NCBI GenBank assembly: GCA_965216315.1
Contig: CBDCFN010000016.1
Span: 864,001 to 928,000, forward strand
Source of the DNA: a bacterium
GTDB lineage: Bacteria > UBA10199 > 2-02-FULL-50-16 > JAJFLM01
Direction of reading: 5' to 3'
Length of the DNA stretch: 64,000 nt
This document shows positions 1,133-62,020 of this stretch, piece by piece (within the stretch, counting starts at the first letter, position 1; each line of letters begins with the position of its first letter). The position numbers and the translations under genes are program-made. The notes beneath the pieces are model-generated. The model saw only the letters and a program-made list of their open reading frames with translations, searched no databases and was not told the origin of the DNA.

Positions 1133-4100
1133 ATGTCGCCGATTATCGCCTTTTTCATCAAGCACAGACGCGTCACGCACATGTTGGTTGTTCTGGTCCT
1201 CTTCGCCGGGCTCTTTTCGATGTCTCGGGTTCAGCGCCAAAAATTTCCCTCGTTTGCGTTGGATATCCTGAAAATTTCGGTCGTTTACCCGGGGGCCAGC
1301 CCCGAGGATATCGAAGTGAATGTTGTCGACCCGATTGAAGACGAACTGATCGAGGTTGAGGACATTGATGAGATCAAAAGTATCTCGATGGAAAATTTTG
1401 CAATGATCATGATCTATATTGATCCTGATGCTGCCGATATTCAGGAGGTCAAGGCGGATGTGCGGGCGGCAATCGATCGTGTTTCAGGGCTTCCGGATAG
1501 GGCAGAGACTCCGCAAATAGAGGAATTGCGCTCATCAAGTGTGCCGACACTGGAACTTGCATTGACAGGGACAGCTCCAGAACGGGTGTTGCGGGAATTC
1601 GCGCATGACCTTGAAATTGACATCAAAAATATTTCCGGTGTGGGGAGCATCGAGAAGGTCGGATATAGAAAGCGGGAAGTCCATATCTCTGTCGACCATG
1701 ATAAACTTGAAGAAATGCATGTTTCATTGAATGAAGTGATGCATGCGGTTCGGGCGCGCAACGTCCGTCAGGCAGGCGGGACATTGCAATCTTACGTCTC
1801 CGAGGCCGACATTGTGACATTTTCCGAATACGAGGATCCGCTTGATGTAGCTGATGTAATCATTCGATCGACTTTTACCGGAGAACACGTTCGTATCTCT
1901 GATATTGCTGATGTGGGAGAGACATTCGAAGATCATGAGATTATCACGCGTGCCAATGGGGATAGCGCCATATCGTTGATCATTAGGCCGCAAGAGCATG
2001 CGGATATTATCACGCTTTCAGAGAATATTATGGAGCGCGTCAGTCAGTTTCGGCGTCGGCTTCCGGCGCATATTAAAGTAGAGCCGCTTTATGATATCTC
2101 AAAATACACCGGCAGTTTGCTGAAGATCGTTTCATACAATGCCTTGATAGGGTTTTGTTTGGTTCTTTTTGTGTTGGCGTTTTTTCTTGATCTGCATACC
2201 GCATTTGGACGGCTTTTGGCCTGCCCGTTACCATTTTAGGATCATTTATCCTCTTTTTGCCTATGGGAATCACTTTAAACGTCATCAGTTTGTCTGCTCT
2301 GATTCTTGTCTTAGGGATCATGGTCGATGACGCTATTATCATTGCTGAAAATGTCCACCGTTATAAGGAGAAGGGGATGGCGCCCGTGGCTGCGACGGTG
2401 GAAGGAGTTAGCAATGTCTTGGCGCCTATTGCTGCATCAACTCTGACAACGATGTTTGCGTTTATGCCCATGCTGTTTATAGGTGGCATTTCCGGCAAAC
2501 TTCTTTGGACCGTTCCTGTCGTTGTTATCATTGTTATATTGGCTTCTTTAGTAGAATCGAGCTTGTTGCTGCCCTGCCATATTGCCTATACCGACGTTTC
2601 AAAGATAAATCCTTTGAGAACCCGTTGGTTGAGGCCGATCATTTGTCTTTATCGCTGGATTATTCGGCTATGCCTTCGCTTTAGGAAGAGCGTATTATTC
2701 CTGTTGATCGCTTTTTCCTTATGCGTCTTCTGGCAAGCGAAAGAAAAATTACAGACGGTTCTGTTTCCCCAAGAAGATCCAAATATATTCTTTATTGTCA
2801 TTGAAACGCCTCGAAATACACCGTTGGAAACAACATCTCGCAAAATCGTCGAAATAGAAAAAATTGTTGATGAAGTCGTTCCGGCACGGGCGAGGCAAAG
2901 TGTTGTCACTCGTATTGGCCATCATGATACAGATGTTTATGGTGACAGCCTAGGTCGCTATGATAATTGGGCATTGCTTAGCGTGTATCTGCACCCCTCG
3001 GAAGAACGAGATGTCCTGTCTGAAGATCTGATGGAGAAGCTTGAAAAACGCTTTGAAGGGCTAGCGGGATATGAGCGCTTGAGCGTTATTGCTCAGGATG
3101 ACAGCCCGCCGGTAGGGAAGCCGATTACCGTTATTTATTCGTCATATCATGACGATACCCGCAATAAATTGGAGCAGCAAACTATCGAGTTCCTCAAGGG
3201 CCTCGATGGTGTGTTTGCCATTCAGACCAGTAATGTGGAAGGGAAAAATGAGCTGCGGTTATTGCTTGATCATGAGCAGATGGCCCGCTTTGGGATTACG
3301 GCGATGCAAGTCGCTCAGACTGTAAGGGCAGCATTTGAAGGCGAGGTTGTGACGTCTATCCGACGCGAGGGCGAAGAGATTGATTTCCGAGTTCGTTTGC
3401 AGAATCCAGCAAAATATCGTGCCGAAGGGATCCGCAGTTTGCTTATTGCAAACAATCAAGGGGATTTGGTGCAACTTGGCAGCTTTGCTCGCTTAGGCCC
3501 GGCTCGTGGTGCCGCCGCGCTACACCATTATGATGGAGACCGATCTGTGACCATTACGGCAGAAGTCGACCCGCGTAAAATTACGTCTATGCAGGCAAGC
3601 GACTTGATTCGAGACAAATTTGAGCCGCTTCTGTTGCAATATTGGGGGGTCACGATGGAAGTGACAGGGGAGGCGAAACAAACACGTGAGAATATGAAGG
3701 ACTTTTTGTGGGCCATGCTCATTGCATTGGTTGCAATCTATATTCTTTTAGTTGTTGTCTTTGATTCTTATGCCCAGCCGTTTATGGTGATGTCGGTGAT
3801 TCCCTATGCCGTTGTCGGGGTTCTCCTGACTCTATTGATGCATGGCCTCCCGATGAGCTTTGTTGCGACTGTTGGCTTGCTTGGTTTGTTCGGCGTGGTC
3901 GTTAATGATACGATTGTCATGACAGCTAGAATTAACGAGTTTTGTGCAATTAAAGGCAAGACGCTTGATGCCGTCGCGGAAGGGGCGGCAAGTCGTTTTC
4001 GGGCGGTGGTTCTTACGTCCGTGACGACATTTGTTGCCTTGATACCGACGGCCTACGGAATTGGCGGCAAGCTTCATTTTGTCAGGCCGATGATACTCGT

Positions 4101-4188
4101 TCTGGCATGGGGGATCGCATTTGCGACCATAATTTCGCTCGTGATGATTCCCACGCTTTATGCGCTATTGGAGCGGATTCGGAAGTAG
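1133..4188 (+). pseudogene. AcrB/AcrD/AcrF-family RND permease split by a 1-nt frameshift near 2204-2206 (real lesion or sequencing error)
   Basis: ORFs 1133-2239 (YPGASPEDIE) and 2257-4188 (LGIMVDDAIIIAENV; SRFRAVVLTSVTT) are the two parts of one RND protein; adding one T to GCATTTGG restores AFWTAFGLPVTILGSFILFLPMGI. Confidence 0.85.
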
Positions 4189-10160: not shown

Positions 10161-10862
10161 ATGGCTCGTCGAGCAACTCAATTACGCCCTATTAAAATAA
10201 AACCCAAGCCGATCAAGACGGCCGATGGCTCCTGTGAGATTTCCTTTGGTGATACGCGGGTGATTTGCACCGCCATGTGGGAAGAGGGGGTGCCTCCTTG
10301 GAAGCAAGGGCATGGGAGTGGTTGGGTGACGGCTGAGTACGGGATGCTGCCGGGCTCCTCCCCGCAGCGGATCAAGCGCAAACATTCCAGTCGTGCGACC
10401 GAAATTCAACGTCTCATCGGACGCTCTTTGCGGGCGGTAACGGATTTGGAGGCGCTGGGTGAGAATATGATCAATGTCGATTGCGATGTTATTCAGGCGG
10501 ATGGTGGCACGCGCACGGCGGCGATTACGGGCGGCTTTGTTGCGATGGTCTATGCCATGGTGAAGGCGAAGAAAAATAAGATTATTTCGGAGATTCCCGT
10601 TAAAGATTATGTTGCGGCGGTATCGGTTGGGATTATCAATAATCGACTTTGCCTGGACTTGGATTACGAGCTCGATTCGCGTGCCGATGTGGATATGAAT
10701 GTCGTGATGACCGGATCCGGCAAGCTCATTGAAGTGCAGGGAACGGCGGAAGGCGATCCATTCAGCCGGCGGGAGCTTAATGATTTGGTTACGCTGGCGG
10801 CCAAAGGAATTCGCAAACTAATGGACGGTCAGAAAAAGTTGATTGGTAAGTACATCGACTAG
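10161..10862 (+). CDS. rph: Ribonuclease PH
   Basis: GWVTAEYGMLP, RATEIQRLIGRSLRA, DCDVIQADGGTRTAAITG, EVQGTAEG. Confidence 0.97.
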   Translation: MARRATQLRPIKIKPKPIKTADGSCEISFGDTRVICTAMWEEGVPPWKQGHGSGWVTAEYGMLPGSSPQRIKRKHSSRATEIQRLIGRSLRAVTDLEALGENMINVDCDVIQADGGTRTAAITGGFVAMVYAMVKAKKNKIISEIPVKDYVAAVSVGIINNRLCLDLDYELDSRADVDMNVVMTGSGKLIEVQGTAEGDPFSRRELNDLVTLAAKGIRKLMDGQKKLIGKYID

Positions 10863-12427
10863 GCGGGTTGCATGCGGTTCCTCGCTAAATGAACTGCAAG
10901 AATGAGCATTTGAATCCCAAATATTGTCCCTAGAAAGATCGTTCCGCCCTCGCTGAACCCATAGCTGTGGAGGCCAGCGGCGAGAATGTAATTGACGCCA
11001 AACCAGGCCATCAAAATCCCTAAAAAGCTCAGCGCGACGAGCGGAATGAAACGTCGGAATGGGATCCAGCCCGAGAAGCGCCCATGGAGAATGGCGACGT
11101 ACATTAAGAGGGCGATGAGTGACCAGGTTTCTTTGGGGTCCCAGCCCCAGAAGCGTCCCCAACTGTAGTCCGCCCAGATTCCTCCGAGGATGATGCCGGC
11201 GGCTAACAAGATGACACCGACTTTGAGGCAGACATAGCAAAGGTTGCTGATGCGCCGGGTAAAAACTTGCGGTACGTCGCCAAAACTCGAGCGGATAAGA
11301 TAATAGTTGGCCATGAACCAGCTCAATGCAAAGACTGCGTAGCTGATCGTAATCGTTGTAACATGCGTTGAAAGCCAAAAATTATCGCGCAGGACGGGGA
11401 CGAGAGGTTTGATTTTAGGGTCGAGCATGCCATGGGCAAAGGTCATCATAAACAGACAGCTCAAATTAAGTCCGAGCCCGACCAAGACAAAGATTTTTTC
11501 GCGGCGCCAATAGGCGAGAATTGTTGCAATCAGGAGGCCGCCGACGCCGACCCACATTACGGTTTCGTACATATTCGTGACAGGTGCACGCTGGGAGATC
11601 ATGACGCGATAAACGATGGCCACTATTTCAATGATGAACGTGATGGCGAGTCCGGTGATGACAGCCGGGTGATTGATGCGTCGGCACGCGGCTGTTACGA
11701 TGAGTGTCAAGAGCGCTGCTAAGATCGCCCAATGAAATAAGCGAAGTCGCTCATAAGTCAATTCAGTCAGATGAGCATTGTCAACTTTGGCGGCATAATC
11801 GGCACCCATCCTGAGAAGAATCGGGGTCATCTTTGCAACGCCGTTTTGGTTTTCCTTAGACAGTGCGGCAAGTTCTCGTAACGGAATCCAAATAACCTTG
11901 TCAGCACTGACCTGGGCCCCGTCATGAAAAAAAGGCGCTTTCCAGTTATTGCCGTTGATGATGTCGTGGTAGAGCCGCGTTTTTTGAATGACTGCGCCAA
12001 TATCCTTAGCGAATGGTGATTTGTCTTTTTTCTCCGTCTTGAGAATAGAAAGCTGCGCTTCGAGTTCAGGGATCTTGGCGGTGATGTCAGTGTAGGTAAT
12101 CTGATTGCTGTCGATCTTGAGCAAGGCTTGGGTCTTGATATGATCCACGCGGATGGGCAGCGCGGGGGCTTTCTGCTGCGCCGGATCGAGGGAGCTTAAA
12201 CTAAGTCGGCAATACAACTCCATCGCCGATTGGCCCTCCCATTTTGATTTGCCGTAGATAAATTTAATGGTTTCCTTCGCATGAACCTCGAGGGGTTTAA
12301 CGCGCCCGCCTGCCAGAATAGGCAGGGCCTCCAGCTCTTTGGGGCAATCTTCCGCGGCAAGTGCCGGGGTGGCACAAAAAACTACCGTGATGAAGAGGAC
12401 GGTTTTAATGAGCAATTTGTGGGTCAC
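10859..12427 (-). CDS. ccsA: Cytochrome c biogenesis protein CcsA/ResC (system II) with N-terminal periplasmic domain
   Basis: WADYSWGRFWGWDPKETW (WWD domain), PVLRDNFWLSTHV, GLHSY; GTG start overlaps the resB TGA. Confidence 0.92.
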   Translation of the reverse strand: MTHKLLIKTVLFITVVFCATPALAAEDCPKELEALPILAGGRVKPLEVHAKETIKFIYGKSKWEGQSAMELYCRLSLSSLDPAQQKAPALPIRVDHIKTQALLKIDSNQITYTDITAKIPELEAQLSILKTEKKDKSPFAKDIGAVIQKTRLYHDIINGNNWKAPFFHDGAQVSADKVIWIPLRELAALSKENQNGVAKMTPILLRMGADYAAKVDNAHLTELTYERLRLFHWAILAALLTLIVTAACRRINHPAVITGLAITFIIEIVAIVYRVMISQRAPVTNMYETVMWVGVGGLLIATILAYWRREKIFVLVGLGLNLSCLFMMTFAHGMLDPKIKPLVPVLRDNFWLSTHVTTITISYAVFALSWFMANYYLIRSSFGDVPQVFTRRISNLCYVCLKVGVILLAAGIILGGIWADYSWGRFWGWDPKETWSLIALLMYVAILHGRFSGWIPFRRFIPLVALSFLGILMAWFGVNYILAAGLHSYGFSEGGTIFLGTIFGIQMLILAVHLARNRMQPA

Positions 12428-14088
12428 GCTTCGCTTCTCCTTCGTTTGGCGCGAATCCTGTGATGAATAAGGATACCGCCAATCAATAATATGCAACCTA
12501 AGTATTTGATCGGTCGCCCGGGATCTCTATTGACAGACAGCACCGAGGCATATGATTTGCCGTCGCCTAAGGCAAAATAAGAGGCTTGATACAGGGTAAA
12601 GCCCCCTTTTTTAAGGGGATTATTCATATAGATATGGGCCTGAGTCGTTTCACTGGCGTCACTGACTTTGACGAAACTTTCGTAGCTAGCGGCATCCATC
12701 GTGCCTGGATTGGTGGCCATTTTGAATTCTTCGAGTTCAATCTGAAAGGGAAGTTGATGGACCCGGTCACCCAACATAATTTGGAAGCTGTCACCGTTTG
12801 CCGCCTCAAATGTCTTTGGGCTCTGGTTGTCGACCCAAAAAGAGTGACTCGTCGCTTGGCTTTCACGATCCGTAATCTTGATGAGAGCAGCGCGATGTCG
12901 CTGCGCTTGGCTGCCATCCGGGGGCTCATAAGACCACTCCAGATAAGGGAGCTTGTTGTCGATAATGCGCGTCAGTGTCATTTCCAGTCCCATCCAGGGG
13001 AGGCTGTAACCCCTGAAGAGCTCCTCGTCTTCGAATGTCCACTGGGTTCCTTTGCCATAAGCCAGCCGCTTATCTCGAAAAAATACAATGTTCGGTGATT
13101 GACGCCAGGTCTCCAACGGAACGAGATTCATGTCAGAATCTTCGTCAATGCGAATTTCTTCAGTGATGGGTTGGGCAATCATCTGCGGAAAGAAATTGTA
13201 TGTTGTTCCGTCGCGCGTTATCACGACTTTTTGATAAGGTTCCTCTTGCTCGGTTTTAAATTGCAGGCCTTGCTGCTTAATTCCTTGTAATGAGATTGCC
13301 GGGAGCACGAGGCAGCGTTGGTTATCCTGGTAGAGATACTGGGCCTGAGTGTCTTTGATAGCGCGGGCAAAGCACTGACTATCAATTCTCATCAAGAGGG
13401 TGATGCTCAAAGGCCCTAACTTTTTCTTGTCATCGCCGCGATTGTGATTGGAGACCTCAATTTTCTGCTGCATATTGGCGCCGGCGAGTTTGGCCCAGAT
13501 AAGACGTTTGGCCGGCTTGCCCGCGGGGTTGTCTCGCCAGAGCTGTCGGCCGGTTGCAAACGGGATATAGCGTTCGATGGAGATGTCGTAGTTGGCAAGG
13601 TTGATGTATGGGGTGTCCCCAAGTTCAATCTCTTTTGTCGCACGTGGTAGATCTGAGGCGTAGCGCAATGATGATTGTTTGGCATTGTCAAAGTAGTGGA
13701 CGTAGATTCGAGGCTCATTGATGAGGACATTGCCATTTGCCTTGCCCGGCATGAGTTCGAGCGAACCGTCGATCCCGAAGAGGGCGGTCACGGCGCTACC
13801 AATCAGTATGGTGAGAAGCCCCGCGTGAATAATATAAAAGCCGGTCAAGCGCACTCGATAGGGGAGGCGAACGAGGGCCGCAAACAGGATATTTAAAAAG
13901 AGGAAAATTTCTGTAATGATGAAAGGCGTAGAAAGGTAGACGGCGTCCTTAGCAAATGCCGCCCCATATCGAGATTCGGTGATGGTCCCCCAGATCATCA
14001 GAACCATCAGCGACAAAATCACGCAGACCGCCAGTTTGAGCGAGGCGAGAAATTTAACGACTTCATTTTTACAGAATTTCTTCCACAT
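12424..14088 (-). CDS. resB: Cytochrome c biogenesis protein ResB/CcsB (system II)
   Basis: FLASLKLAV..IWGTITES, IIHAGLL, IYMNNPLKKGGFTLYQASY, SVLSVNRDPG; start ATG 14088. Confidence 0.85.
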   Translation of the reverse strand: MWKKFCKNEVVKFLASLKLAVCVILSLMVLMIWGTITESRYGAAFAKDAVYLSTPFIITEIFLFLNILFAALVRLPYRVRLTGFYIIHAGLLTILIGSAVTALFGIDGSLELMPGKANGNVLINEPRIYVHYFDNAKQSSLRYASDLPRATKEIELGDTPYINLANYDISIERYIPFATGRQLWRDNPAGKPAKRLIWAKLAGANMQQKIEVSNHNRGDDKKKLGPLSITLLMRIDSQCFARAIKDTQAQYLYQDNQRCLVLPAISLQGIKQQGLQFKTEQEEPYQKVVITRDGTTYNFFPQMIAQPITEEIRIDEDSDMNLVPLETWRQSPNIVFFRDKRLAYGKGTQWTFEDEELFRGYSLPWMGLEMTLTRIIDNKLPYLEWSYEPPDGSQAQRHRAALIKITDRESQATSHSFWVDNQSPKTFEAANGDSFQIMLGDRVHQLPFQIELEEFKMATNPGTMDAASYESFVKVSDASETTQAHIYMNNPLKKGGFTLYQASYFALGDGKSYASVLSVNRDPGRPIKYLGCILLIGGILIHHRIRAKRRRSEA

Positions 14089-14145
14089 TTCTTTATTTTT
14101 CCACGGGTTCCCGATCGCGCCAATGATCTCATTACATTGGTGCTC

Positions 14146-14181
14146 ATGACGAATATCATATCTGTCAGAGATATCAATCAT
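14146..14181. promoter_or_regulatory. Two FNR/Crp-like boxes in the divergent resB/hao promoter
   Basis: ATGAC-GAAT-ATCAT (14146-14159) and GAGAT-ATCA-ATCAT (14168-14181), starts 22 bp apart. Confidence 0.6.
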
Positions 14182-14257
14182 GGCTGTAAGACCCTTATTT
14201 AAGGTATATAGATGGGATCTATAGGCGCAATTTATTTAATCTTTTTGAGGAGGCATC

Positions 14258-15712
14258 ATGAAGCCGGTTAAATTTAAGAGCCCTTTTCTACTTGGTCTCG
14301 TTGCAGCGGTAGTGATTCCGCTGATGGCGGCGCATGCGGGCAGTCTCCCCACTGAACTCAGCGCCGAGAGCAAGAAATGCGCAACCTGTCACCAGCAAGA
14401 AAATGATTCCATCTACCAACAGTGGGGCGAGTCAAAGCACTATCGGGCGAATGTTGGTTGTTTTGAGTGTCACGAGGCTCAAGCGGGAGATAAGGATGCC
14501 TTTAGTCATTATGGGCAGACAATCGCGACGATTGTTTCTCCTCAGGACTGCGCGAGTTGCCATGAAAAAGAAGTGAAGGAATTTACTGAAAGTCATCATG
14601 CTAAGGCCGGGCGGATTATGGGCTCATTGGATAATCTCCTCGCCGAAGTCGTTGAAGGGAATACCGGTATGAAGACAGCGGCCTTTCCCCATGGGATCTC
14701 CGCGGCGGCGGTCAATGGCTGCTGGCAGTGTCATGGTTCTGAAATCAAAGTTCTCAAGGGCGGAAAACTGGATCCTGCGACCTGGCCCAACTCGGGAATG
14801 GGGCGGATCAACCCGGATGGGTCCGAAGGTTCCTGTTCGGCCTGTCATTCACGCCACAGTTTTTCAGTCGCTCAGGCCCGCAATCCTGAAAATTGCGGTA
14901 AATGCCATATGGGCCCCGATCACCCACAACTTGAGATCTATAATGAATCAAAACACGGTATTGCCTACCAGGCGCACAAAGCCGATTTAAAGATGGATAG
15001 CGCTAAATGGGTTGTCGGCGAGGACTATAGCGCCGCCCCAACTTGCGCGACCTGTCATATGTCGGCGACCAAAAACCAGCCGGTCACTCATGATGTCGGA
15101 CTCAGGTTGTCGTGGAATAATCGGCCTCCTAAGTCGGTTCGACCCGAAGTCTCCGATGCTAAACTGGGGCTCAAGACAGCGAGCATCCCGTGGACGAAAC
15201 GACGTGCCAACATGAAGGACGTTTGTACTTCATGTCACAATAAGGATTTTACGGATAATTTTTACTTTCAGTATGATGAGCTTATCAAGCTGTACAATGA
15301 TAAGTTTGCAGACCCCGGGTTGAAGCTGATGGCTGCGGCCAAGCCCTTAATGAACAAGCCAAAATTTGCGAGTGACATTGATTTTATCTGGTTCGAGATC
15401 TGGCATCATGAAGGGCGCCGTGCTCGTCATGGCGCCTCGATGATGGGGCCTGACTATACGCATTGGCACGGAACCTATGAAATTGCGAAGCATTTTTATG
15501 TAAAACTGATTCCAGCGTTAGAAGAGCTTGCGAAGGATAATCTCAGTTCCAAGGATGCAACCACAGTTGCTGCCGCGAAGAAGTTGCAGGCAACGATCAG
15601 CGAGGTGCTCAACTCGGATGATCATAAGTGGTATTTGGACAAGGAAGATCCCAAGGTCAAGGCGGCCCGCAAGAAACGTCAGACTGAATTTAAGAAGCGC
15701 TACGGGAAGTAA
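14258..15712 (+). CDS. Octaheme cytochrome c, hydroxylamine oxidoreductase family (reductive/epsilon-Hao-like), Sec signal
   Basis: 8 CxxCH motifs (CATCH, CFECH, CASCH, CWQCH, CSACH, CGKCH, CATCH, CTSCH); CHSRHSFS, CHMGPDHPQ, YNESKHG, GASMMGPDYTHWHG. Confidence 0.9.
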   Translation: MKPVKFKSPFLLGLVAAVVIPLMAAHAGSLPTELSAESKKCATCHQQENDSIYQQWGESKHYRANVGCFECHEAQAGDKDAFSHYGQTIATIVSPQDCASCHEKEVKEFTESHHAKAGRIMGSLDNLLAEVVEGNTGMKTAAFPHGISAAAVNGCWQCHGSEIKVLKGGKLDPATWPNSGMGRINPDGSEGSCSACHSRHSFSVAQARNPENCGKCHMGPDHPQLEIYNESKHGIAYQAHKADLKMDSAKWVVGEDYSAAPTCATCHMSATKNQPVTHDVGLRLSWNNRPPKSVRPEVSDAKLGLKTASIPWTKRRANMKDVCTSCHNKDFTDNFYFQYDELIKLYNDKFADPGLKLMAAAKPLMNKPKFASDIDFIWFEIWHHEGRRARHGASMMGPDYTHWHGTYEIAKHFYVKLIPALEELAKDNLSSKDATTVAAAKKLQATISEVLNSDDHKWYLDKEDPKVKAARKKRQTEFKKRYGK

Positions 15713-15728
15713 TTAAACGAGGTGATAG

Positions 15729-17213
15729 ATGAGATTAGTAATGATATCGGGAGCTGTTTTACTGCTCATCCCGTTCATGTTGGCCTGTTCCGGTGAAGCC
15801 GGTTCGCATGGTTTTTCCTCTTCCAAGTATGCGGTCAATACGTCGACCTTGCCGGCAGAACTGACTGACGAATCGCAAGCCTGCATTTCCTGCCATATGA
15901 AGGAAAACCCAAGCATCTACCAGCAATGGGGTGGTTCCAAGCACTACCGTGCCAATGTCGGCTGTTATGAGTGTCATCGCGCCAATAGCTCGGATCCTGA
16001 TGCCTTTGATCATTATGGGATGAGTATCTCCATTCTCGTGTCTCCTCAGGATTGTGCGCAATGTCATGCCAAGGAAGTCAAAGAATTTACATCGAGTCAT
16101 CACGCCAAAGCGGGCCGCATTATGGGCTCACTCGACAACCTTCTCGCTGAAGTCGTTGAAGGGAATAATAAAATGGTGACGGAGGGGTTCCCGGACGGGA
16201 TCTCGGCAGCTGCGGTTAACGGCTGTTGGCAGTGTCACGGGTCTGAGATCAAGGTGCTCAAGAATGGCAAATTGGATCCGGCGACCTGGCCGAATTCCGG
16301 TATGGGGCGGATTAACCCGGATGGCTCGGAAGGATCTTGTTCCGCTTGTCACTCACGGCATGAATTTTCCGTTGCACAGGCGCGCGGCCCTGAGAATTGC
16401 GGTAAGTGTCATATGGGTCCGGATCATCCGCAGATAGAGGCCTTTAATGAGTCAAAACACGGCATCGCTTTTTATGCCCACCGCGATAAGATGAACTTAG
16501 ATAATCCGAAATGGATTGTCGGCCAAGATTATACTGCGGCACCGACTTGTGCGACCTGTCATATGTCGGCGACCAAAGATCTGCCGGTGACCCATGATGT
16601 CGGACTTCGCATCTCTTGGAACAATCGACCGCCAAAATCAGTTCGACCTGAGTTGTCGGACGCCAAGCTGGGGCTTCCAACCGCCAAGGTAAAATGGACA
16701 GAGCGTCGTGATAATATGAAGAAAGTTTGTGTATCCTGCCACAATCAACAATTCACTGATAATTTTTATGTTCAATACGATGCCTTGATCGATCTTTATA
16801 ATACTAAGTTTGCGGATCCGGGTCTCAAGTTGATGAAGGCGGCCAAGCCGCTGCTTAAGCCCGTCAAATTCAGTAATGAGTTAGACTTTATCTGGTTTGA
16901 ATTATGGCATCATGAAGGGCGGCGAGCCCGTCATGGTGCTTCAATGATGGCGCCCGATATTACGCACTGGCACGGGACCTACGAGATCGCGAAACATTTC
17001 TATGAGAAGTTTATTCCTAAGCTGCAGAAGTTGGCTAAGAAGAATCTCGATAATAAAGATGCCGGCAAGGCAAAGGCCGCCAAAGAACTCAAAGAACTCA
17101 TTGTCACGGTACTCAACTCAGATGATCATAAATGGTTTATTGGGCAGGAGAGTCCGGAGGCAAAGAGAAAAAGAGAGCAGCGGCGAGAAGAATTTAAGAA
17201 ACGGTATAAGTAG
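15729..17213 (+). CDS. Second octaheme HAO-family cytochrome c, predicted lipoprotein
   Basis: 8 CxxCH motifs; lipobox-like FMLA-C20; GASMMAPDITHWHG; closely similar to the upstream paralog. Confidence 0.9.
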   Translation: MRLVMISGAVLLLIPFMLACSGEAGSHGFSSSKYAVNTSTLPAELTDESQACISCHMKENPSIYQQWGGSKHYRANVGCYECHRANSSDPDAFDHYGMSISILVSPQDCAQCHAKEVKEFTSSHHAKAGRIMGSLDNLLAEVVEGNNKMVTEGFPDGISAAAVNGCWQCHGSEIKVLKNGKLDPATWPNSGMGRINPDGSEGSCSACHSRHEFSVAQARGPENCGKCHMGPDHPQIEAFNESKHGIAFYAHRDKMNLDNPKWIVGQDYTAAPTCATCHMSATKDLPVTHDVGLRISWNNRPPKSVRPELSDAKLGLPTAKVKWTERRDNMKKVCVSCHNQQFTDNFYVQYDALIDLYNTKFADPGLKLMKAAKPLLKPVKFSNELDFIWFELWHHEGRRARHGASMMAPDITHWHGTYEIAKHFYEKFIPKLQKLAKKNLDNKDAGKAKAAKELKELIVTVLNSDDHKWFIGQESPEAKRKREQRREEFKKRYK

Positions 17214-17218
17214 ATCTT

Positions 17219-17743
17219 ATGTTTAGACTACGTGTTGCTACGGTATTTTTTGTAGGATTTGTGCTGGCAGGTTTGTTGCTATTAATTTCATCTCAAACGC
17301 GCGCGATCGAGCTGGATCCTAATGTTGAGATTGATGTAAGGGGGATGCGTCTGGAGATGTTCCCTTGTTCTAAATGTCATAATCTAATCGGAAAAAGTGA
17401 AGGGCGTAAAGAAGCGGCGCATCGCAATGTCCATGTCCGTCACGGGGAGATCAATAAAAATTGTCTCAATTGTCACAATGGCGATAATATGGATACCTTG
17501 CATTTACTGAATTCAAAGAATGCCCTGCCATTCGAGAAGTCTTATCAAATTTGTGGGCAGTGCCATGGCAATATCTTGAATGAGTGGAATCTTGGAATTC
17601 ATGGTCAGCAGACGGGGAGTTGGAACGGCAAAAAACTGCGGCAAACCTGCTCGGCATGCCACAATCCGCACCAACCAAAATTTAAGGACATGAAGCCTCT
17701 TCCGGCGCCGCAACATCCGCATGAGAGGAGGGCAAGACGTTGA
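17219..17743 (+). CDS. Small tetraheme cytochrome c with N-terminal signal/anchor
   Basis: CSKCH, CLNCH, CGQCH, CSACH; hydrophobic N-terminus. Confidence 0.85.
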   Translation: MFRLRVATVFFVGFVLAGLLLLISSQTRAIELDPNVEIDVRGMRLEMFPCSKCHNLIGKSEGRKEAAHRNVHVRHGEINKNCLNCHNGDNMDTLHLLNSKNALPFEKSYQICGQCHGNILNEWNLGIHGQQTGSWNGKKLRQTCSACHNPHQPKFKDMKPLPAPQHPHERRARR

Positions 17744-18684
17744 TACAGTGGACTCGAACCGATAAACGCGTGAGCGCCAAACTTAAGAAGCAGCTGCGGT
17801 CGCGAGTCAGTCGTCGCAATGTTCTCAAAGGATTATTTCTGGGAGCGGCGGCCGCGATGGTGACACCGGCAAAGACGGCCAAAGCTTTTTCTTGGGGCGA
17901 ATTTTTTCAGCGTCATTATAAAGAGCTAAGCCCGGAAGATAAGAAGAAGGTATTTGCGCGCATCGAAACGGAAACAAAAGAGCGCTATGGTGTCAATGTA
18001 GAGATCACTGATCCGCCTGCTATGGATGGTGTCGAGTTTGTTTATTGTCTTAATCTGTCCAAGTGTAATGGCAATAGAAAGTGCGTTGAGGCCTGCGTCA
18101 AAGAGAATAATCAATCGCGCGACCCGCAGATCCAATATATCAAGGTCCTTGAGATGCCGAAGGGTTCCATGAACTTAGAAGCAGGGGACCAATACTATGA
18201 ACATGATAAGGTTCCTCAGCAGGACAAGTATTATCTGCCGGTTCAGTGCCAGCAATGTCGTAATCCTCCCTGCACGAAGGTGTGCCCGGTTGAAGCGACC
18301 TGGCAGGAAAAAGACGGAATTGTGGTTATTGATTATAACTGGTGCATTGGTTGTCGTTATTGTGAGGCGGCCTGTCCCTATGAGGCGCGACGCTTTAATT
18401 TTACGACGCCGACAATTGCGCCATCGGAGATCAATCCTAAGCAAGGCTATCTATCGAATCGCGTCCGCCCCAAAGGGGTCGTGGAGAAATGTACGTTTTG
18501 CTTGCAAAGAACCCGGAAGGGCCAGTATCCGGCCTGTTTGGAGGCGTGTCCCACGGGTGCGCGCAAGTTCGGTAATATCCTCGATCCCAAGAGTGAGGTG
18601 AGGGCGATCCTCGAGAACAAGCGCGTCTTTGTCTTGAAAGAAGACTTGGGAACGATGCCGCGCTTTTATTACTTTTTTGATTAG
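17740..18684 (+). CDS. Tat-exported 4Fe-4S dicluster protein, NrfC/DsrO/PsrB family
   Basis: SRRNVLKG twin-arginine motif; CNGNRKCVEAC, CQQCRNPPCTKVCP, CIGCRYCEAACP, CTFC..ACLEACP; TTG start with GAGGAGG RBS. Confidence 0.88.
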   Translation: MIQWTRTDKRVSAKLKKQLRSRVSRRNVLKGLFLGAAAAMVTPAKTAKAFSWGEFFQRHYKELSPEDKKKVFARIETETKERYGVNVEITDPPAMDGVEFVYCLNLSKCNGNRKCVEACVKENNQSRDPQIQYIKVLEMPKGSMNLEAGDQYYEHDKVPQQDKYYLPVQCQQCRNPPCTKVCPVEATWQEKDGIVVIDYNWCIGCRYCEAACPYEARRFNFTTPTIAPSEINPKQGYLSNRVRPKGVVEKCTFCLQRTRKGQYPACLEACPTGARKFGNILDPKSEVRAILENKRVFVLKEDLGTMPRFYYFFD

Positions 18685-18692
18685 GAAGAGCT

Positions 18693-19916
18693 GTGATTAA
18701 ATATTTACACTTTTGTAAAGCGATGACCCTTGAGGTCCTGAGAGGATCAAAGCGCTACTATGCATGGATGGGATTTCTCGCGGTGATCATCCTTATCGGG
18801 GTCGTGGGCTATATTCATCAGTTAAATGAGGGGCTTATTGTCACGAATATGACGGACCAGGTGTCATGGGGCGCCTATATTGCGAATTTTACCTATATCG
18901 TCGGGCTTGCTGCAGCCTCGGTCATGCTAGTAATCCCGGCCTATTTTTATAAAATTAAAGAACTGATCCATATCACTTTTGTCGGTAAGTTGTTTGCGGT
19001 GGCTTCGATCATTATGTGCCTCTTGTTTGTTGTCGTTGATATGGGGCGCCCGGATCGTTTTTGGCACATTATGCCCTTTGTCGGCCGCATGAATTTTCCA
19101 TATTCTATCCTTGCCTGGGACGTCATTGTATTGTCGGGTTATCTGTTGCTCAATCTGCATATTCCCGGGTATCTTTTATATAAGAAATATATTGGTCACC
19201 CCCCAACCGACAATTACTATAAACCCTTTGTTTATATTGCCGTCTTCTGGGCAATCAGCATTCACACCGTGACCGCCTTCTTATACGCCGGCCTGGGCGG
19301 ACGGCCTTTTTGGAATTCTGCAATTGTGGCGCCCCGTTTTATTGCATCTGCCTTTGCGGTCGGGCCGTGTTTTCTGCTGATCGCGTTGCAGTTTATCAGA
19401 CGATACACCCATCTTAAGGTGGAGAATTACATCTACACCGTGCTTAAACGGATTATTGCGGTTGCGATGATTATCAATCTCTTTTTGCTTGGTTCGGAGG
19501 TCTTTAAGGAGTTTTATACGCAGTCGGCCCATACCGCAGCGGCGAAATATCTCTTTTTTGGGTTGCATGGGCACAACATGCTGGTTCCCTACATCTGGAT
19601 TGCGGTGGTTTTTAATGTCATCGCGACAATCATTTTTGCCAGTCGCAAACTGAGCCGCAAAATGAGACTCGTCAATGTCGCTTGCATTATGGCGATTGTG
19701 GGCATCTGGATTGAAAAGGGGATGGGTTTATTGGTTCCGGGCTTCATTCCCTCTCCGTTGGGCGATATTGTTGAGTACACCCCATCAATAACGGAGATTT
19801 CGGTGTGTGCCGGGATTTGGGCACTGGGGTTCTTCCTCTTTACGCTCTTCCTTAAGGCAGCGATCCCTATAGAAACGGGTGAGCTGCGGCTACATAAAAA
19901 AACGGCAACCCGGTGA
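18693..19916 (+). CDS. NrfD/PsrC/DsrP-family quinol-interacting membrane protein
   Basis: TNMTDQVSWGAYIANFTY, VDMGRPDRFW, SILAWDVIVL, WIEKG..L.VPGF; many hydrophobic segments. Confidence 0.88.
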   Translation: MIKYLHFCKAMTLEVLRGSKRYYAWMGFLAVIILIGVVGYIHQLNEGLIVTNMTDQVSWGAYIANFTYIVGLAAASVMLVIPAYFYKIKELIHITFVGKLFAVASIIMCLLFVVVDMGRPDRFWHIMPFVGRMNFPYSILAWDVIVLSGYLLLNLHIPGYLLYKKYIGHPPTDNYYKPFVYIAVFWAISIHTVTAFLYAGLGGRPFWNSAIVAPRFIASAFAVGPCFLLIALQFIRRYTHLKVENYIYTVLKRIIAVAMIINLFLLGSEVFKEFYTQSAHTAAAKYLFFGLHGHNMLVPYIWIAVVFNVIATIIFASRKLSRKMRLVNVACIMAIVGIWIEKGMGLLVPGFIPSPLGDIVEYTPSITEISVCAGIWALGFFLFTLFLKAAIPIETGELRLHKKTATR

Positions 19917-19932
19917 AGGGTTGCCGTTTTTT
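19896..19932. terminator. Bidirectional rho-independent terminator
   Basis: AAAAAAACGGCAACCC-GGTGAA-GGGTTGCCGTTTTTT between convergent genes. Confidence 0.9.
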
Positions 19933-19952: not shown

Positions 19953-21260
19953 TTAGAAGGAGAGGTTCGTCTGTAGGTAACCCCACAGCGGAACTTTCGA
20001 GCCCACGTTGGATTTGATAAATCCAGCGGGGATGAAGGCGCCAGCCCCGAATTGAAAGGCCAAGATATCGAGCGGTTTATAACGAAGCGTAAGATCCGCT
20101 TCGACGCCCGCAAAACGCGAGCCCGAAGGCCCTGCGGCACCGATCGGAGTCACGCCGTTGAGCCGGAAGAGTCCCGCTGACGTCTTGGTCCGCATCATCA
20201 TGTGCGTATCCAACTTGACCAGCCATTTTTCGCCTGGTTTCGCTGAAAGGTGGAGAACACCGCCCATGATGTTCCGGCGCCCGAAAAGGTCGATAAAGCC
20301 GAGCCATTTGTGGGCCGTCGGAAAGAGTTGGTTGTAATTGAGTGAGGTGACAAAGAACTCCAGGCCGACCCGGAAGTTGTACCAGTCTTCCCAGGTGTAT
20401 CCGCCCTCGACATCAAATTGCCAGTCGCGTTGATTGGCTCCAGCCAGTTTGCCGAACTGCCCGGTTCCTTCAAAACGATAGTCCCAGTTGTTGGGTTTCG
20501 ATTTGATGCGGAGCCCCCCGGTCACGTAGTTGTGGGGTCGAGGCGATGCCGTCTGATCGAGGCGATATAAGGCATACAGATCTAAGGCTTGAAAGAAGCG
20601 TCCCAAATCCAACGATGAATAGACACCGCCGAAATGGGCGTCTCCGAAGGAGCCGGTTGCGACACCGCGGCCAAACCCTGCTTCGACGTCATTGAGCAAG
20701 GACCAAAATAAGTCGACCCAGCCACTGTCGTGTTTGAAGTTTAGTTTGAGGGCATCAAAACTGCGGCCGACGTTGCTCCAGCCGACGTTGCCGATGACAA
20801 GATGATCCCCATAGATGAGTTCTTGTCGTCCTAGTTTGAAAGTGAACCAGTCAGAGGGGCTATAAGCGAGCCAACCCTGGTGGACACCGAGTGCCGGATC
20901 GTTGAGGACCGTCCCGCTCGTTGCCGCCGCGCCGGTCGCATTGGCGGCCGAATTGACTGTCGACAAGCTTGCAGTTGTCTCTCCCCAGCCGGCGGTGAAT
21001 TGAGGCTGAAAGAAGAGGACAATTTGCTCATGGGGGATGAAAGTAATGTCCGGGCGAATTCTCGTTAGAACAAAATCTCGGCGATCGGATGCCGAGGTAA
21101 AATCCGTATTTTGGAAATGTTCGTAACGGAAGCGTGCTTGCCCGCCGAACTTAAGTTTACCGTCAAGTAGCTCAAATTTCTCAGCCTGTGCGGTCGCCGG
21201 AAAGATAAAACCGACCGAGCACAGTGCGACGAGGAAGAGCTTCCAATAGTGCTGTTTCAT
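19953..21260 (-). CDS. Alginate-export (AlgE-like) outer-membrane beta-barrel porin
   Basis: Signal peptide; GGQARFRYE, KLGRQELIYGDHLVIGNVGWSNVGRSFDA, QLFPTAHKWLGFID; terminal Phe. Confidence 0.8.
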   Translation of the reverse strand: MKQHYWKLFLVALCSVGFIFPATAQAEKFELLDGKLKFGGQARFRYEHFQNTDFTSASDRRDFVLTRIRPDITFIPHEQIVLFFQPQFTAGWGETTASLSTVNSAANATGAAATSGTVLNDPALGVHQGWLAYSPSDWFTFKLGRQELIYGDHLVIGNVGWSNVGRSFDALKLNFKHDSGWVDLFWSLLNDVEAGFGRGVATGSFGDAHFGGVYSSLDLGRFFQALDLYALYRLDQTASPRPHNYVTGGLRIKSKPNNWDYRFEGTGQFGKLAGANQRDWQFDVEGGYTWEDWYNFRVGLEFFVTSLNYNQLFPTAHKWLGFIDLFGRRNIMGGVLHLSAKPGEKWLVKLDTHMMMRTKTSAGLFRLNGVTPIGAAGPSGSRFAGVEADLTLRYKPLDILAFQFGAGAFIPAGFIKSNVGSKVPLWGYLQTNLSF

Positions 21261-35524: not shown

Positions 35525-36340
35525 CTATGGAACAAGTTGCCCCTGCGCTAAGGAGTTTTCTTGCTCCGCTTCGTCTAATTCATCATCATTGTCACTGTCT
35601 TCAAACAAGTCCGAAGATAGTTCCAAATTCTTAATGATCTGCTCCAATAATATTTGATTGTGGCCTTCTTCGAGCAGAATGATGGGCTGGCCATCGGGCC
35701 CCAGGCTGATTTCAACATCAGGGGCATCGAGGTCGACATTGTTAAACCATTGATCCAGATCGAAGGCGATAAAGACTTGTTCAGTCCCGTTTTGAGAACT
35801 TAATTCAAAACCGGTGTTTTCATTTTCAAGTTCAAATTCTTCGTCCTTATTAAGCGTTACCTGAAAGGGGGTGCCGTCGCCGCGTTCACCGCTAATGACA
35901 ACGCTCTTGCCGGCGAGCGGGCTCGAAACGCTTTCTTCCAGCTTGGCGAGACGGAGTTCAATGCGGCAGTAGACGTCCTCCGGAATGCCTACCCCGACTA
36001 AGTTGGATTCATTGGTCGGATCGAGTAGGTCGACGATAAAAGGTCCGTCGAAGCGAATCTCTCCATTATCATCGAGAGTCTCGTCTTCACAGACTTCGAT
36101 GGGCCGGAAACGAATCCGCTCCAGCACGATGTCGGCCTGGGTCACATTTAAAGTTCCAACGATCAAGTGGGGCAATAGGACATTTTGGAGCGTGGAATTT
36201 TGATAGGCGATCACGCGCAGGTTAATCTTACTGGGATTGCCTGTCTCCGTACCTCCTTCCAGGGAAGATGTTTGGTTGCCGCAGGCCAGGCAGCCGATTA
36301 AGCCCAGCGTCCAAAATAGTTTGCTGAATAAATTTTTCAT
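35525..36340 (-). CDS. Acidic lipoprotein with GGTETGN motif
   Basis: Lipobox CLAC; GGTETGNP just after the signal; FDGPFIVDLL. Confidence 0.75.
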   Translation of the reverse strand: MKNLFSKLFWTLGLIGCLACGNQTSSLEGGTETGNPSKINLRVIAYQNSTLQNVLLPHLIVGTLNVTQADIVLERIRFRPIEVCEDETLDDNGEIRFDGPFIVDLLDPTNESNLVGVGIPEDVYCRIELRLAKLEESVSSPLAGKSVVISGERGDGTPFQVTLNKDEEFELENENTGFELSSQNGTEQVFIAFDLDQWFNNVDLDAPDVEISLGPDGQPIILLEEGHNQILLEQIIKNLELSSDLFEDSDNDDELDEAEQENSLAQGQLVP

Positions 36341-37191
36341 CGCTTCGCTTTCCCCGGTTCCAGTGTAAGTGGAAACATTTGAATATTTATTTGAACGACG
36401 TCTTCCGTCGCCTCATTTGTGGCAATCATTTTTAAGATTTCTTGTCGGAATTCTTGGATTTTGTCCTTCAATTCCGGGAGCCTTTTCTTGCTGACGCCTA
36501 AGGTGAGGGCGCTGATATCTCTTTTTTCGGCCGGCAATCTATCTAGTACGAATTTGCTCAGGTCGAGCAGATTGAGATGATAGTTAAATACACTGAGCGA
36601 TTTGACTTCGGGCCCTGTGGAGGCGAGCGAACTCACTTGACGCCACTGTCCATCGGGTGCCTTCTCGATAAGAGAAAGCTTTTCCAGGAGTGCGATGGAT
36701 TTATCGACTTGCTCTGGTGAAACGGCCGGATAGAGTCTTTCACTGATCCATTCCGCTGTTCCGTCAAAGTCCTTTGCGACGACCAACTCGCGGATGACGG
36801 TATGATACCAGGTGTTATAATAATCATACTGCGCCTGGTCGATAGGTTTTAATTCCTTCAGTTTGCGGGTTTTGAGGAGGGCGCGAAAGTGTTCATCCTT
36901 CTCCTGATGGCTTTCCGCTTGATTGAATAAGACGAGGTGGTGAAAAAATTCGCGTTCTTGCTTATTCAATTTAAGTCCAGAGGCAAACTTTTCGATACTT
37001 TCAATCGTGAGATTGCGGTCGCCATCCATGACCAGCTTAAAAATATTGGAGGAGGTAAAACCGGCGCGTTTGGAAAAGGTCCGAAACGAAAATGCGGCGC
37101 GCGTTCCTTTGGCTTGTTGATACCAATCCCGCAGGAATTTACGGTAATCCCGGTAGCTGAAGAGGTCGATTGCTTTGGGTGGCTTGGCCAT
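36337..37191 (-). CDS. TIGR02147-family protein (N-terminal HTH-like + DUF4423-like domain)
   Basis: Y.DYR.FL.D.Y, FSFR.FSKRAGF.S, G.RNL, YY..WYH.VIREL, RDISALT, Q.NIQMFPL. Confidence 0.85.
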   Translation of the reverse strand: MAKPPKAIDLFSYRDYRKFLRDWYQQAKGTRAAFSFRTFSKRAGFTSSNIFKLVMDGDRNLTIESIEKFASGLKLNKQEREFFHHLVLFNQAESHQEKDEHFRALLKTRKLKELKPIDQAQYDYYNTWYHTVIRELVVAKDFDGTAEWISERLYPAVSPEQVDKSIALLEKLSLIEKAPDGQWRQVSSLASTGPEVKSLSVFNYHLNLLDLSKFVLDRLPAEKRDISALTLGVSKKRLPELKDKIQEFRQEILKMIATNEATEDVVQINIQMFPLTLEPGKAKR

Positions 37192-54617: not shown

Positions 54618-54737
54618 ATGATCTATGTCATCTCTTTGTTTGCGCAGAGATGCAATAGAAACACGAATAATAACAGCAATATATGATGAATATCGTCAGA
54701 TATGATTAATATCATATGCCATCATGACGCTCCGCAT
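54618..54737. promoter_or_regulatory. Cluster of FNR/Crp-like boxes in the tatA/nar divergent promoter
   Basis: ATGAT-CTAT-GTCAT (54618), ATGAT-GAAT-ATCGT (54683), ATGAT-TAAT-ATCAT (54702), ATGAC-GCTC-CGCAT (54724). Confidence 0.65.
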
Positions 54738-54806
54738 TGTTGGGAAATCACTGAATCGATATTCATTGAACATAATATGAATGAAAACCCGAAAGGACGA
54801 TGCGTT

Positions 54807-58600: not shown

Positions 58601-59227
58601 TATTGCTACAATGTCGAATGGCTGGTTCCCTGGCGGACGCTGACCGGGCGACAGTCCTTTTATTTGGATCATGATGCCTACATCGCTTTCGGGGAACACC
58701 TGCCGACGTACAAACCGTCACCACGTCCGGAAGCATACGGCGATTTGCGTAAGAGCTTGCAAAGCGGTGATGCCAAGATGCTCAACTACCTGACGCCTCA
58801 TGGTAAATGGCACATCCATTCGACCTATGGGGATACGTTGCGCATGTTAACGCTTTCACGCGGGACGGAGCCCTTCTGGATGAGTGAAGAGGATGCCGCG
58901 GATCTGGGGATTCATGACAACGATTATGTTGAAGTGCACAACGACAACGGTGTTGTGGTGACACGGGCATGTGTGAGCGCGCGTATTCCGAAGGGTGTCT
59001 GTATTATTTACCACTCGCCGGAGCGGACTTATTCAGTCCCGCGTTCGCCGTTGCGCAACTTTAAGCGGGCCGGCGGTCATAACAGTTTGACTCGGACGCG
59101 GCTCAAACCGAACCTGATGGTCGGTGGCTATGCGCAATTCACCTATTTCTTTAATTACTGGGGCCCGACGGGGTGCAATCGCGATACCTTTGTAACAGTT
59201 CGTAAGCTCGAAAAGCTTGTATGGTAA
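55622..59227 (+). CDS. narG: Respiratory nitrate reductase alpha subunit (cytoplasmic Nar/NXR clade)
   Basis: [51 protein letters not shown]; no Tat signal. Confidence 0.97.
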
Positions 59228-59239
59228 GGATGGTGACCT

Positions 59240-60730: not shown

Positions 60731-60731
60731 C

Positions 60732-61975: not shown

Positions 61976-62020
61976 GAGAAAAAGTTAACTTAAAGAGGGA
62001 GCGTGTAGAGGGGTGATGAG

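Follow-up and report, generated by a model that had tools for sequence, protein, structure and literature searches.

Analysis of a 64,000-nucleotide stretch of contig CBDCFN010000016.1 (positions 864,001 to 928,000; hereafter, the window) from assembly GCA_965216315.1, a bacterium of the UBA10199 lineage, outlined a five-gene operon on the forward strand (14258-19916) that combines two octaheme cytochromes of the hydroxylamine oxidoreductase (HAO) family with a tetraheme cytochrome c, a Tat-exported iron-sulfur (Fe-S) protein and an NrfD-family integral membrane subunit. To judge from its gene content, this operon probably specifies a periplasmic, quinol-fed reductase of nitrite that would most likely form ammonium, completing nitrate ammonification together with the respiratory nitrate reductase Nar encoded in the same window.

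The first gene of the operon, hao1 (14258-15712), is preceded by a Shine-Dalgarno sequence (GAGGAGG) graded as good and encodes a 484-amino acid (aa) octaheme cytochrome, predicted to be periplasmic, with a Sec signal ending in AHA/GS. Its paralogue hao2 (15729-17213; 494 aa) presents a lipobox (FMLAC) with a linker of about 25 residues after it, and is followed by the genes encoding the tetraheme cytochrome c (17219-17743; 174 aa, with a single N-terminal membrane helix and four CxxCH motifs), the four-cluster Fe-S subunit (17740-18684; 314 aa) and the NrfD-family subunit (18693-19916; 407 aa, with ten hydrophobic helices and a presumed quinol site). The intergenic gaps are 16, 5, -4 and 8 bp. 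Together, the operon proteins contain 20 CxxCH motifs (eight in each Hao and four in the tetraheme cytochrome), and a motif scan returned no CxxCK, CxxxCH or Cx4CH instances in any of them. The operon is closed by a hairpin terminator that reads in both directions (19898-19932) and lies between the convergent nrfD-like and porin genes; it encompasses an A-run, a 9-bp GC-rich stem (CGGCAACCC/GGGTTGCCG, 19903-19926) and a run of six T, with the nrfD stop codon inside the overlap between gene and hairpin. A shorter form of this hairpin was also reported by an automatic terminator scan. The first-pass annotation, made from the sequence alone, had described a tight octaheme-octaheme-tetraheme-Tat Fe-S-NrfD operon with 20 CxxCH motifs and a terminator, and the open reading frames (ORFs), motif counts, gaps and hairpin bear this description out.

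Upstream of hao1, a 76-bp gap (14182-14257) separates the operon from divergently transcribed cytochrome maturation genes. No FNR/CRP box (TTGATN4ATCAA, up to two mismatches) was found in this gap, and the promoter scan yielded matches no better than 9 of 12 positions, at chance level (16 found, 12.8 expected). Across the whole window, palindromes resembling TTGATN4ATCAA with up to two mismatches numbered 66 where 39.8 were expected, a count reached in none of 100 shuffles.

Both octaheme cytochromes clearly belong, by sequence, to the HAO family. They match the Pfam multiheme family PF13447 (84.7 and 92.1 bits), and their best solved relative is IhOCC (4QO5; E-value 2.7e-49 with a single sequence and 3.6e-63 with a 19-sequence profile), followed by Kustc0458 (6H5L) and then by the Nitrosomonas and Kuenenia HAOs and hydrazine dehydrogenase (HDH) (4FAS, 4N4J, 6HIF). 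Chains of the CxxCK-type octaheme nitrite reductases (ONR) match Hao weakly, over the N-terminal 80 residues (E-value about 0.003), and no MccA or Otr chain appears among the solved relatives at E-values up to 1. With no CxxCK motif in the operon proteins, this weak ONR match and no hit to the NrfA model TIGR03152 anywhere in the genome, the earlier claim that these enzymes are neither NrfA nor ONR holds. A word-based protein search identified at least 8000 clusters (90% identity) of related proteins at E-values up to 0.001, the top 120 of which are 58-76% identical to Hao1. The Asp/His pair that follows the fifth heme motif of HDH (D255/H256) is kept in Hao1 as D221/H222, within a CGKCHMGPDH segment, and the extended motif CGKCHMGPDHP is exact in 97 of these 120 homologues. 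Foldseek searches with a poor AlphaFold2 model of Hao1 (19-row alignment, mean pLDDT 55.4) also ranked 4QO5, 6H5L and the HAOs first, at TM-scores of about 0.2 and with 26% identity to IhOCC, adding nothing beyond the sequence comparison.

A defining feature of the oxidative P460-type enzymes is a tyrosine cross-linked to the catalytic heme, which in KsHDH is Tyr462 and reaches the catalytic heme of the neighboring subunit (Akram et al. 2019, PMC6469936). To locate this column, HAO paralogues from two anammox genomes, reached via related loci, were aligned using MAFFT with the window Haos and five family members; HDH was picked from the anammox paralogues by near-identity to 6HIF, and the Tyr of its WNDATY segment was counted as residue 462. 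The alignment places Tyr in this column for HDH and five HOX-like paralogues, Trp for the HAOr-like paralogues, and His for the family of the window (His402 in Hao1 and His413 in Hao2), with Trp as the next residue (Trp403 in Hao1). The motifs S-M-M-G-P-D-Y-T-H-W and S-M-M-A-P-D-I-T-H-W reported by the first-pass annotation are indeed present in Hao1 and Hao2, respectively, and so is the lack of the cross-link Tyr that it read from them. Its placement of Trp at the Tyr position does not stand, the ungapped register being off by one, and the Tyr of the PDY segment, which could have occupied the cross-link position, does not do so in the gapped alignment.

The same pattern extends through the family. 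The cross-link motif could be matched in 115 of the 120 database homologues and in 72 of 73 homologues from related loci, and none of them presents Tyr at the column or at the next residue, the column being His, or Gln in two cases. Two residues before the column, the Tyr400 of Hao1 is Ile in Hao2 and Trp in IhOCC, and 31 of the 115 homologues carry Ile, Trp or Phe at this position, indicating that it is not a conserved catalytic residue. By their sequence, Hao1 and Hao2 are hence Tyr-less enzymes that are probably not of the oxidative P460 type, and the Tyr-less HAOs tested so far have been described as reductases that do not oxidize (Ferousi et al. 2021, PMC8042395).

Hao1 and Hao2 share 70% identity (351 of 501 columns of a global alignment). 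Tandem hao genes were not detected among the related loci, defined here as the best 80 of 544 confirmed relatives in a scan of species genomes. A rapid maximum-likelihood tree with 95 rows (LG+G4) unites Hao2 with homologues P0007 and P0009 (SH-like approximate likelihood-ratio test, SH-aLRT, 99) and places Hao1 with P0002 in a five-row clade (94) nested within a seven-row clade (96), suggesting that the hao duplication is older than the divergence from these homologues. The Hao2 clade has three members, each presenting the lipobox Cys, a linker of 20-30 residues after it and the motif APDITHW, and the Hao1 clade presents ordinary signal peptides and the motif GPDYTHW. P0002 and P0009 each lie on a contig of 8517 bp, probably one and the same. 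As far as predicted signals go, a conserved pair of soluble and lipoprotein Haos is a feature specific to this window; the novelty here lies in this pair, in hao coming first in the gene order and in the combination with Nar.

The remaining three proteins were compared with NCBIfam models (equivalog cut-offs of 350 bits for DsrP, 200 for DsrO, 377.6 for NrfC, 184 for NrfB and 310.6 for TIGR02161) and with Pfam families (cut-off of 24.1 bits for PF03264). The NrfD-like subunit passes the DsrP cut-off (412.5 bits), matches PF03916 (140.5 bits) and has ActC of alternative complex III as a solved relative (E-value 3.5e-9). The Fe-S subunit matches Pfam Fer4_11, falls just short of the DsrO cut-off (179.9 bits) and scores 105.6 bits on NrfC; it is thus DsrO-like and also resembles NrfC, PsrB and ArrB, and its solved relatives are ArrB, PsrB and ActB. 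The NrfB model yields 22.1 bits on the operon, and the tetraheme cytochrome lies below the cut-offs of both PF03264 (NapC/NrfH family, 21.5 bits) and TIGR02161 (20.2 bits), with no significant solved relative in a structure database search.

The four CxxCH motifs of the tetraheme cytochrome and four further His residues (H68, H75, H128 and H151) are invariant in 20 aligned homologues, which fits four bis-His hemes, and the Tat motif of the Fe-S subunit (SRRNVLK) contains R25 and R26, invariant in 20 of 20 aligned homologues. In the Fe-S subunit, the first cluster motif (CNGNRKCVEAC, residues 109-119) has Asn where CxGCxxC has its second Cys, and the same loss (to Asn or Ser) is seen in five of 19 aligned relatives (L012, L023, L026, L042 and L043). 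This substitution suggests a [3Fe-4S] cluster at the first site, as has been reported for QrcC (PMC8076601).

In its architecture only, the combination of a tetraheme cytochrome, a Tat-exported four-cluster Fe-S protein and an NrfD-family subunit is that of an NrfBCD-type quinol dehydrogenase. The NrfCD-type designation given to it earlier is therefore apt for the architecture (PF03916, Fer4_11, the twin-arginine motif and four CxxCH) and not for subunit identity, where the best scores are DsrO- and DsrP-like. The DsrJOP part of DsrMKJOP likewise consists of a small membrane-anchored cytochrome c, a Tat-exported Fe-S protein and a ten-helix NrfD-type protein, but DsrJ is a triheme cytochrome that is unmatched here and no dsrMK genes are adjacent. 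Neither dsrMK nor a triheme dsrJ was identified in the operon, and no dsrAB turned up in the genome, where the lone PF01077 match is a NirA-like 703-aa ORF. The module is hence DsrJOP-like in architecture and not part of a Dsr system, and automatic annotation will mislabel such operons as sulfate-reduction genes, given that the DsrP model passes on the NrfD-like subunit. A complex prediction with the Fe-S, NrfD and tetraheme subunits and four hemes scored 0.72, against 0.77 for a control in which the NrfD chain had been exchanged; these scores speak neither for nor against binding.

The rest of the genome (2.96 Mb assembly, 98.3% complete) provides the context for this operon. The window encodes a cytoplasm-facing nitrate reductase and a nitrate/nitrite transporter (narG, narH, narI and narK, 55622-63808, forward strand), with narG scoring 1538 bits on TIGR01580, as well as molybdenum-cofactor genes, and a second narK is encoded immediately beyond the end of the window. 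This confirms the Nar system noted by the first-pass annotation, which had also called for a genome-wide check for nrfA, nirS, nirK and amo. Profile searches of the genome identified no nrfA, nirK, hcp, amoA or napA orthologue. A candidate nirS, retrieved through a PF02239 match, was rejected, being a YVTN beta-propeller protein that lacks any cytochrome domain. No norB was found in the genome, both heme-copper oxidases being CoxA-type, and the nosZ query matched only CoxB cupredoxin domains. Five ORFs with three or more CxxCH motifs are present in the genome, three of them in this operon; the other two are a QrcA/ActA-like pentaheme protein encoded immediately beyond the window and a class-I cytochrome of 897 aa that is fused to a bc-type complex. 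With no other nitrite reductase detected, the operon is the only evident fate of respiratory nitrite besides export, and the absence of nitric oxide (NO) and nitrous oxide reductases from the genome argues for ammonium over NO as its product.

Two observations concern the surroundings of the nar genes. The first gene of the nar operon, unusual in this position, encodes a protein of 307 aa that contains a SoxX-like cytochrome c domain (54702-55625, forward strand) and overlaps the narG start by 4 bp. Beyond the second narK lies a cluster (L083, G000:C16:928001-934000) encoding the 196-aa pentaheme protein, a 994-aa fusion of molybdopterin-like and Fe-S domains, and an NrfD-family subunit; it resembles alternative complex III and Qrc and constitutes a second NrfD-type module, adjoining Nar.

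From the gene content, motifs, family assignment, lack of the cross-link Tyr and synteny, we infer the electron path, its direction, the substrate and the product as follows. Nitrate would be reduced in the cytoplasm by NarGHI and the resulting nitrite exported to the periplasm by NarK. The NrfD-family subunit would oxidize (mena)quinol and pass electrons through the Tat-exported four-cluster Fe-S protein and the membrane-anchored tetraheme cytochrome to Hao, presumably trimers of Tyr-less octaheme enzymes, with Hao1 soluble and Hao2 lipid-anchored. There, nitrite would be reduced, most likely fully to ammonium; hydroxylamine and NO could serve as alternative substrates or as bound ones. The conserved adjacency of the genes is what suggests that Hao and the tetraheme, Fe-S and NrfD subunits may form a physical complex. 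The overall interpretation advanced by the first-pass annotation thus stands in its main elements (Tyr-less octahemes in one operon with a quinol-type module, and Nar without NrfA), and has been revised in the alignment register, the NrfCD label and the dedicated role given to the maturation genes. More tentatively, and with some doubt, the Hao-tetraheme-(DsrO-like Fe-S)-(DsrP-like NrfD) set might represent a distinct respiratory quinol:nitrite oxidoreductase of many phyla, in which the soluble and lipid-anchored paralogues seen here would divide the labor, either between nitrite and hydroxylamine or NO, or between free and membrane-tethered trimers.

A synteny survey, which the first-pass annotation had proposed, revealed that this association is widespread. 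Metagenome-assembled genomes from many phyla contribute the related loci: Verrucomicrobiota, Planctomycetota (with Scalindua and Brocadiaceae among them), Omnitrophota, Cloacimonadota, Hydrogenedentota, Myxococcota, Bdellovibrionota, Desulfobacterota, Calditrichota, Nitrospirota and Gammaproteobacteria. Directly beside hao, tblastn and ORF calling identified the tetraheme gene in 46 of the 80 loci, the Fe-S gene in 48 and the NrfD gene in 49, counts that are lower bounds, some contigs being short. The prevailing gene order is tetraheme-FeS-NrfD-hao (45 loci). Bdellovibrionota and Myxococcota together provide the four loci (L008, L026, L042 and L043) that share the hao-first order of the window, and the Haos of these loci form one clade (SH-aLRT 91) without those of the window. 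Furthermore, a NapA-like gene lies within 8 kb of hao in 20 of the 80 loci, 14 of them with the module, often directly downstream of hao; five of these 20 genes were scanned, and the NapA equivalog cut-off was passed by four of them but not by the fifth (L077). The surroundings of module-less hao genes were examined through 128 ORFs in 19 loci, 51 of which, immediately flanking hao, were scanned. In sulfur-oxidizing Gammaproteobacteria, such hao genes adjoin Crp/Fnr-type regulators, tetratricopeptide repeat proteins, diheme cytochromes, SoxYZ and flavocytochrome c, suggesting that soluble cytochromes feed the enzyme there.

The operon type is not new as an idea, having been hypothesized in print in 2017. 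Slobodkina et al. (2017, PMC5276818) described a four-gene locus beside nap, coding for a multiheme cytochrome homologous to HaoA, for NrfD and for a 4Fe-4S protein as well as a cytochrome c, and hypothesized it to be a nitrite reducer in the NrfA-less nitrate ammonifiers Thermosulfurimonas dismutans (TDIS_0606-0609) and Dissulfuribacter thermophilus (DBT_2326-2329). Compared by description only, these loci contain a similar gene set to that of the window, but with a single Hao, next to Nap and not Nar, and the proposal is a genome-based hypothesis. The earlier statement that no characterized example is known is accordingly right in that no biochemical study was found, and is qualified by this published layout. 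Our literature search on Hao/NrfD complexes returned only that hypothesis and papers on Deferribacter, in which Hao-enabled ammonification has been proposed with other partners (PMC6896113). A 2021 review of NrfD-type complexes (PMC8076601) includes MccACD, does not contain the words hydroxylamine or octaheme, and lists no Hao complex. Related paralogues of anammox bacteria have been named hao5A/5B, with unknown function, and HAO5A has been placed with Ignicoccus (PMC7814187, PMC12758564).

Comparison with characterized systems helps to delimit the enzyme. IhOCC, the archaeal, membrane-associated and Tyr-less octaheme cytochrome c of Ignicoccus hospitalis (4QO5), resembles the window Haos in its eight hemes in HAO arrangement and in the absence of a P460 cross-link. 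It is not known to have a tetraheme-FeS-NrfD partner. Within the HAO clade, IhOCC has been assigned to the nitrite reducers (PMC9250108). The epsilonproteobacterial Hao, and the proposed reverse hydroxylamine:quinone redox module (HURM) of Nautilia profundicola, are Tyr-less, reduce nitrite and hydroxylamine in vitro and have been proposed as an NrfA substitute (PMC5276818, PMC8042395, PMC6896113); the partner proposed for this Hao is a NapC/NrfH-type tetraheme (CycB), whereas the tetraheme of the window is below the PF03264 cut-off and an Fe-S/NrfD pair is present instead. Kuenenia HAOr (Kustc0458/0457, 6H5L) is likewise a Tyr-less HAO with a small cytochrome partner and is itself a reductase (PMC8042395), but its partner is a soluble diheme cytochrome, its product is NO, it presents Trp at the Tyr column where the window has His, and it falls in a separate clade of the Hao tree.

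Other likenesses concern the module. In Escherichia coli NrfABCD, as proposed here, a periplasmic multiheme nitrite reductase is fed from quinol via a small multiheme cytochrome, a Tat-exported Fe-S protein and NrfD, but the catalytic subunit is the pentaheme NrfA with its CxxCK motif, and NrfB is also a pentaheme protein. The closest formal analogue with an octaheme enzyme, which the first-pass annotation did not consider, is the sulfite reductase MccACD of Wolinella and Shewanella, where an octaheme reductase is combined with a quinol dehydrogenase made of the Fe-S protein MccC and the NrfD-like MccD (PMC8076601); MccA, however, has its active heme in the N-terminal module and falls into another octaheme clade (PMC9250108), and Hao is not of that type. 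Finally, the orange octaheme of Guaymas Beggiatoaceae (BOGUAY_0691), encoded beside napAB, has native nitrite reductase activity and a sister lineage in SUP05/Thioglobus (PMC6449678); unlike the system described here it has no quinol module, and it also oxidizes hydroxylamine and hydrazine. Given that the Thioglobus Hao falls in the module-less gammaproteobacterial clade of our tree, BOGUAY_0691 is probably a member of the same family.

Several points weigh against the proposal of a quinol-fed, ammonium-forming nitrite reductase. The Fe-S and NrfD subunits are closest, by NCBIfam score, to DsrO and DsrP of sulfur metabolism, and Slobodkina et al. (PMC5276818) left a sulfur role open for their loci. 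The pairing of Hao and module is not obligatory, with no module near Hao in 31 of the 80 loci (some on short contigs), and this Hao was found in none of 40 kin genomes (two of the same family, one of the same order and 37 of the same class), so that it is no core trait of the lineage, occurs here sporadically and was probably acquired. Some of the nitrite could be taken by a NirA/Sir-like sirohaem protein of the cytoplasm; this 703-aa protein (L088, G000:C15:424490-426602), encoded beside panBC, is below all equivalog cut-offs and is the sole NIR_SIR protein of the genome. The Hao1 model is too poor for residue-level checks of the active site in three dimensions. No biochemical or expression data for module-linked members were found in the literature, and a search for sequencing runs listed four DNA runs of one study and no RNA run. 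Lastly, Kustc0458, a solved Tyr-less relative, makes NO and not ammonium in vivo (PMC8042395).

This last point bears directly on the possibility that nitrite reduction by the Haos stops at NO, as in Kuenenia HAOr, and that the operon is an NO-forming nitrite reductase. Kustc0458 is the second-best solved relative and HAOr forms NO from nitrite (PMC8042395), yet the closest solved structure is IhOCC and not HAOr, the family of the window is a long-branch clade apart from the HAOr-type paralogues, and NO would be a toxic dead end where norB, nosZ and a hydrazine synthase context are all lacking; we regard this outcome as unlikely. It is similarly improbable that the system detoxifies hydroxylamine and NO under nitrosative stress without a respiratory role. 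The absence of Hcp from the genome would leave room for such a function, HAO-family reductases reduce hydroxylamine and NO in vitro (PMC8042395) and the orange Beggiatoaceae octaheme has been discussed as a possible detoxifier (PMC6449678), but a dedicated quinol-dehydrogenase module, two copies of the enzyme and the recurrent linkage to napA fit respiration better.

The DsrO/DsrP-like scores could also be taken to mean that the substrate of the module-linked octaheme is a sulfur compound, be it sulfite, tetrathionate or polysulfide, which it would reduce much as MccACD or Otr does. This alternative was named by Slobodkina et al. (PMC5276818), and the octaheme relatives ONR, Otr and MccA act on sulfur compounds (PMC9250108). 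It is nevertheless quite unlikely: dsrAB is missing and the single PF01077 match is NirA-like, MccA and Otr are absent from the solved relatives even at permissive E-values, neither the CX15CH motif nor the Cu-site features of MccA were seen, and nap genes are the recurrent neighbors, in 20 of 80 loci. Oxidative operation, with electrons from periplasmic hydroxylamine, hydrazine or NO entering the quinone pool as in a HURM, is suggested by the family name and by the precedent of ammonia oxidizers, and the native orange octaheme did oxidize hydroxylamine and hydrazine in vitro (PMC6449678). The cross-link Tyr is absent, however, Tyr-less HAOs tested so far do not oxidize (PMC8042395), and in the absence of amoA and of a hydrazine synthase context there is no source of substrate, making this direction very improbable. 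The lipobox of Hao2 and an adjoining outer-membrane barrel, which recurs in 13 of 80 loci, raise the further idea of a porin-cytochrome conduit for extracellular electron transfer. That barrel belongs to an anion-channel family and not to the MtrB/PCC porins, Hao2 retains the full HAO catalytic motifs and most loci have no barrel or lipoprotein copy, so that a conduit appears extremely improbable.

If a quinol-linked Hao of this form does make ammonium, the consequences would extend well beyond this genome. Surveys of nitrate ammonification count nrfA, and a sizeable share of nitrogen retention in sediments and waters would then have been misattributed or missed, the Hao family (at least 8000 protein clusters at 90% identity) including anammox bacteria and sulfur-oxidizing Gammaproteobacteria. 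Having Nar and this operon but lacking any other known reductase of nitrite or NO, the genome offers a clean test case.

Two sets of genes flank the operon. The divergent pair encodes System II cytochrome c maturation proteins: resB (ccsB; 12424-14181, reverse strand; PF05140) and the heme-handling subunit ccsA (10859-12496, reverse strand; 545 aa; PF01578/TIGR03144), which overlap by 73 bp. The first-pass annotation had correctly noted their divergent transcription, but had assigned them to the operon. The window resB is the sole ResB gene of the genome, the only other PF01578 gene encodes a 264-aa hemA-adjacent protein and no Ccm system was seen in the genome; as the only System II set, resB-ccsA hence constitutes a general maturation system that is not dedicated to the operon. 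Among the 80 related loci, ccsA is nearby in two. The window ResB is also long and divergent (603-aa frame, 63.9 bits on PF05140), whereas same-family kin present a canonical 468-aa ResB (219.8 bits). Used as a query, it returned no match in five kin genomes, in which a ResB family search identified other ResB types (loci L116-L121), and the maturation genes may therefore differ in history from the rest of the genome.

Downstream, and convergent with the operon, an outer-membrane beta-barrel of the Alginate_exp family (PF13372) is encoded at 19953-21260 on the reverse strand. By tblastn, such a barrel adjoins Hao here and in related loci (those listed for it are L016, L031, L040, L041, L045, L049, L050, L056, L063, L064, L066, L069, L071 and L082), and PF13372 was confirmed in all four adjacent ORFs scanned (L040, L045, L056 and L066). 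The barrel may be the anion channel of the system, for nitrite or nitrate. Elsewhere in the window, a TIGR02147 family protein (299 bits) is encoded at 36337-37191 on the reverse strand, and a resistance-nodulation-division efflux permease is spread over two forward-strand ORFs (1133-2239 and 2257-4188) that cover positions 3-352 and 378-1009 of the 1009-position model, a division that may be genuine or due to a frameshift or a stop codon.

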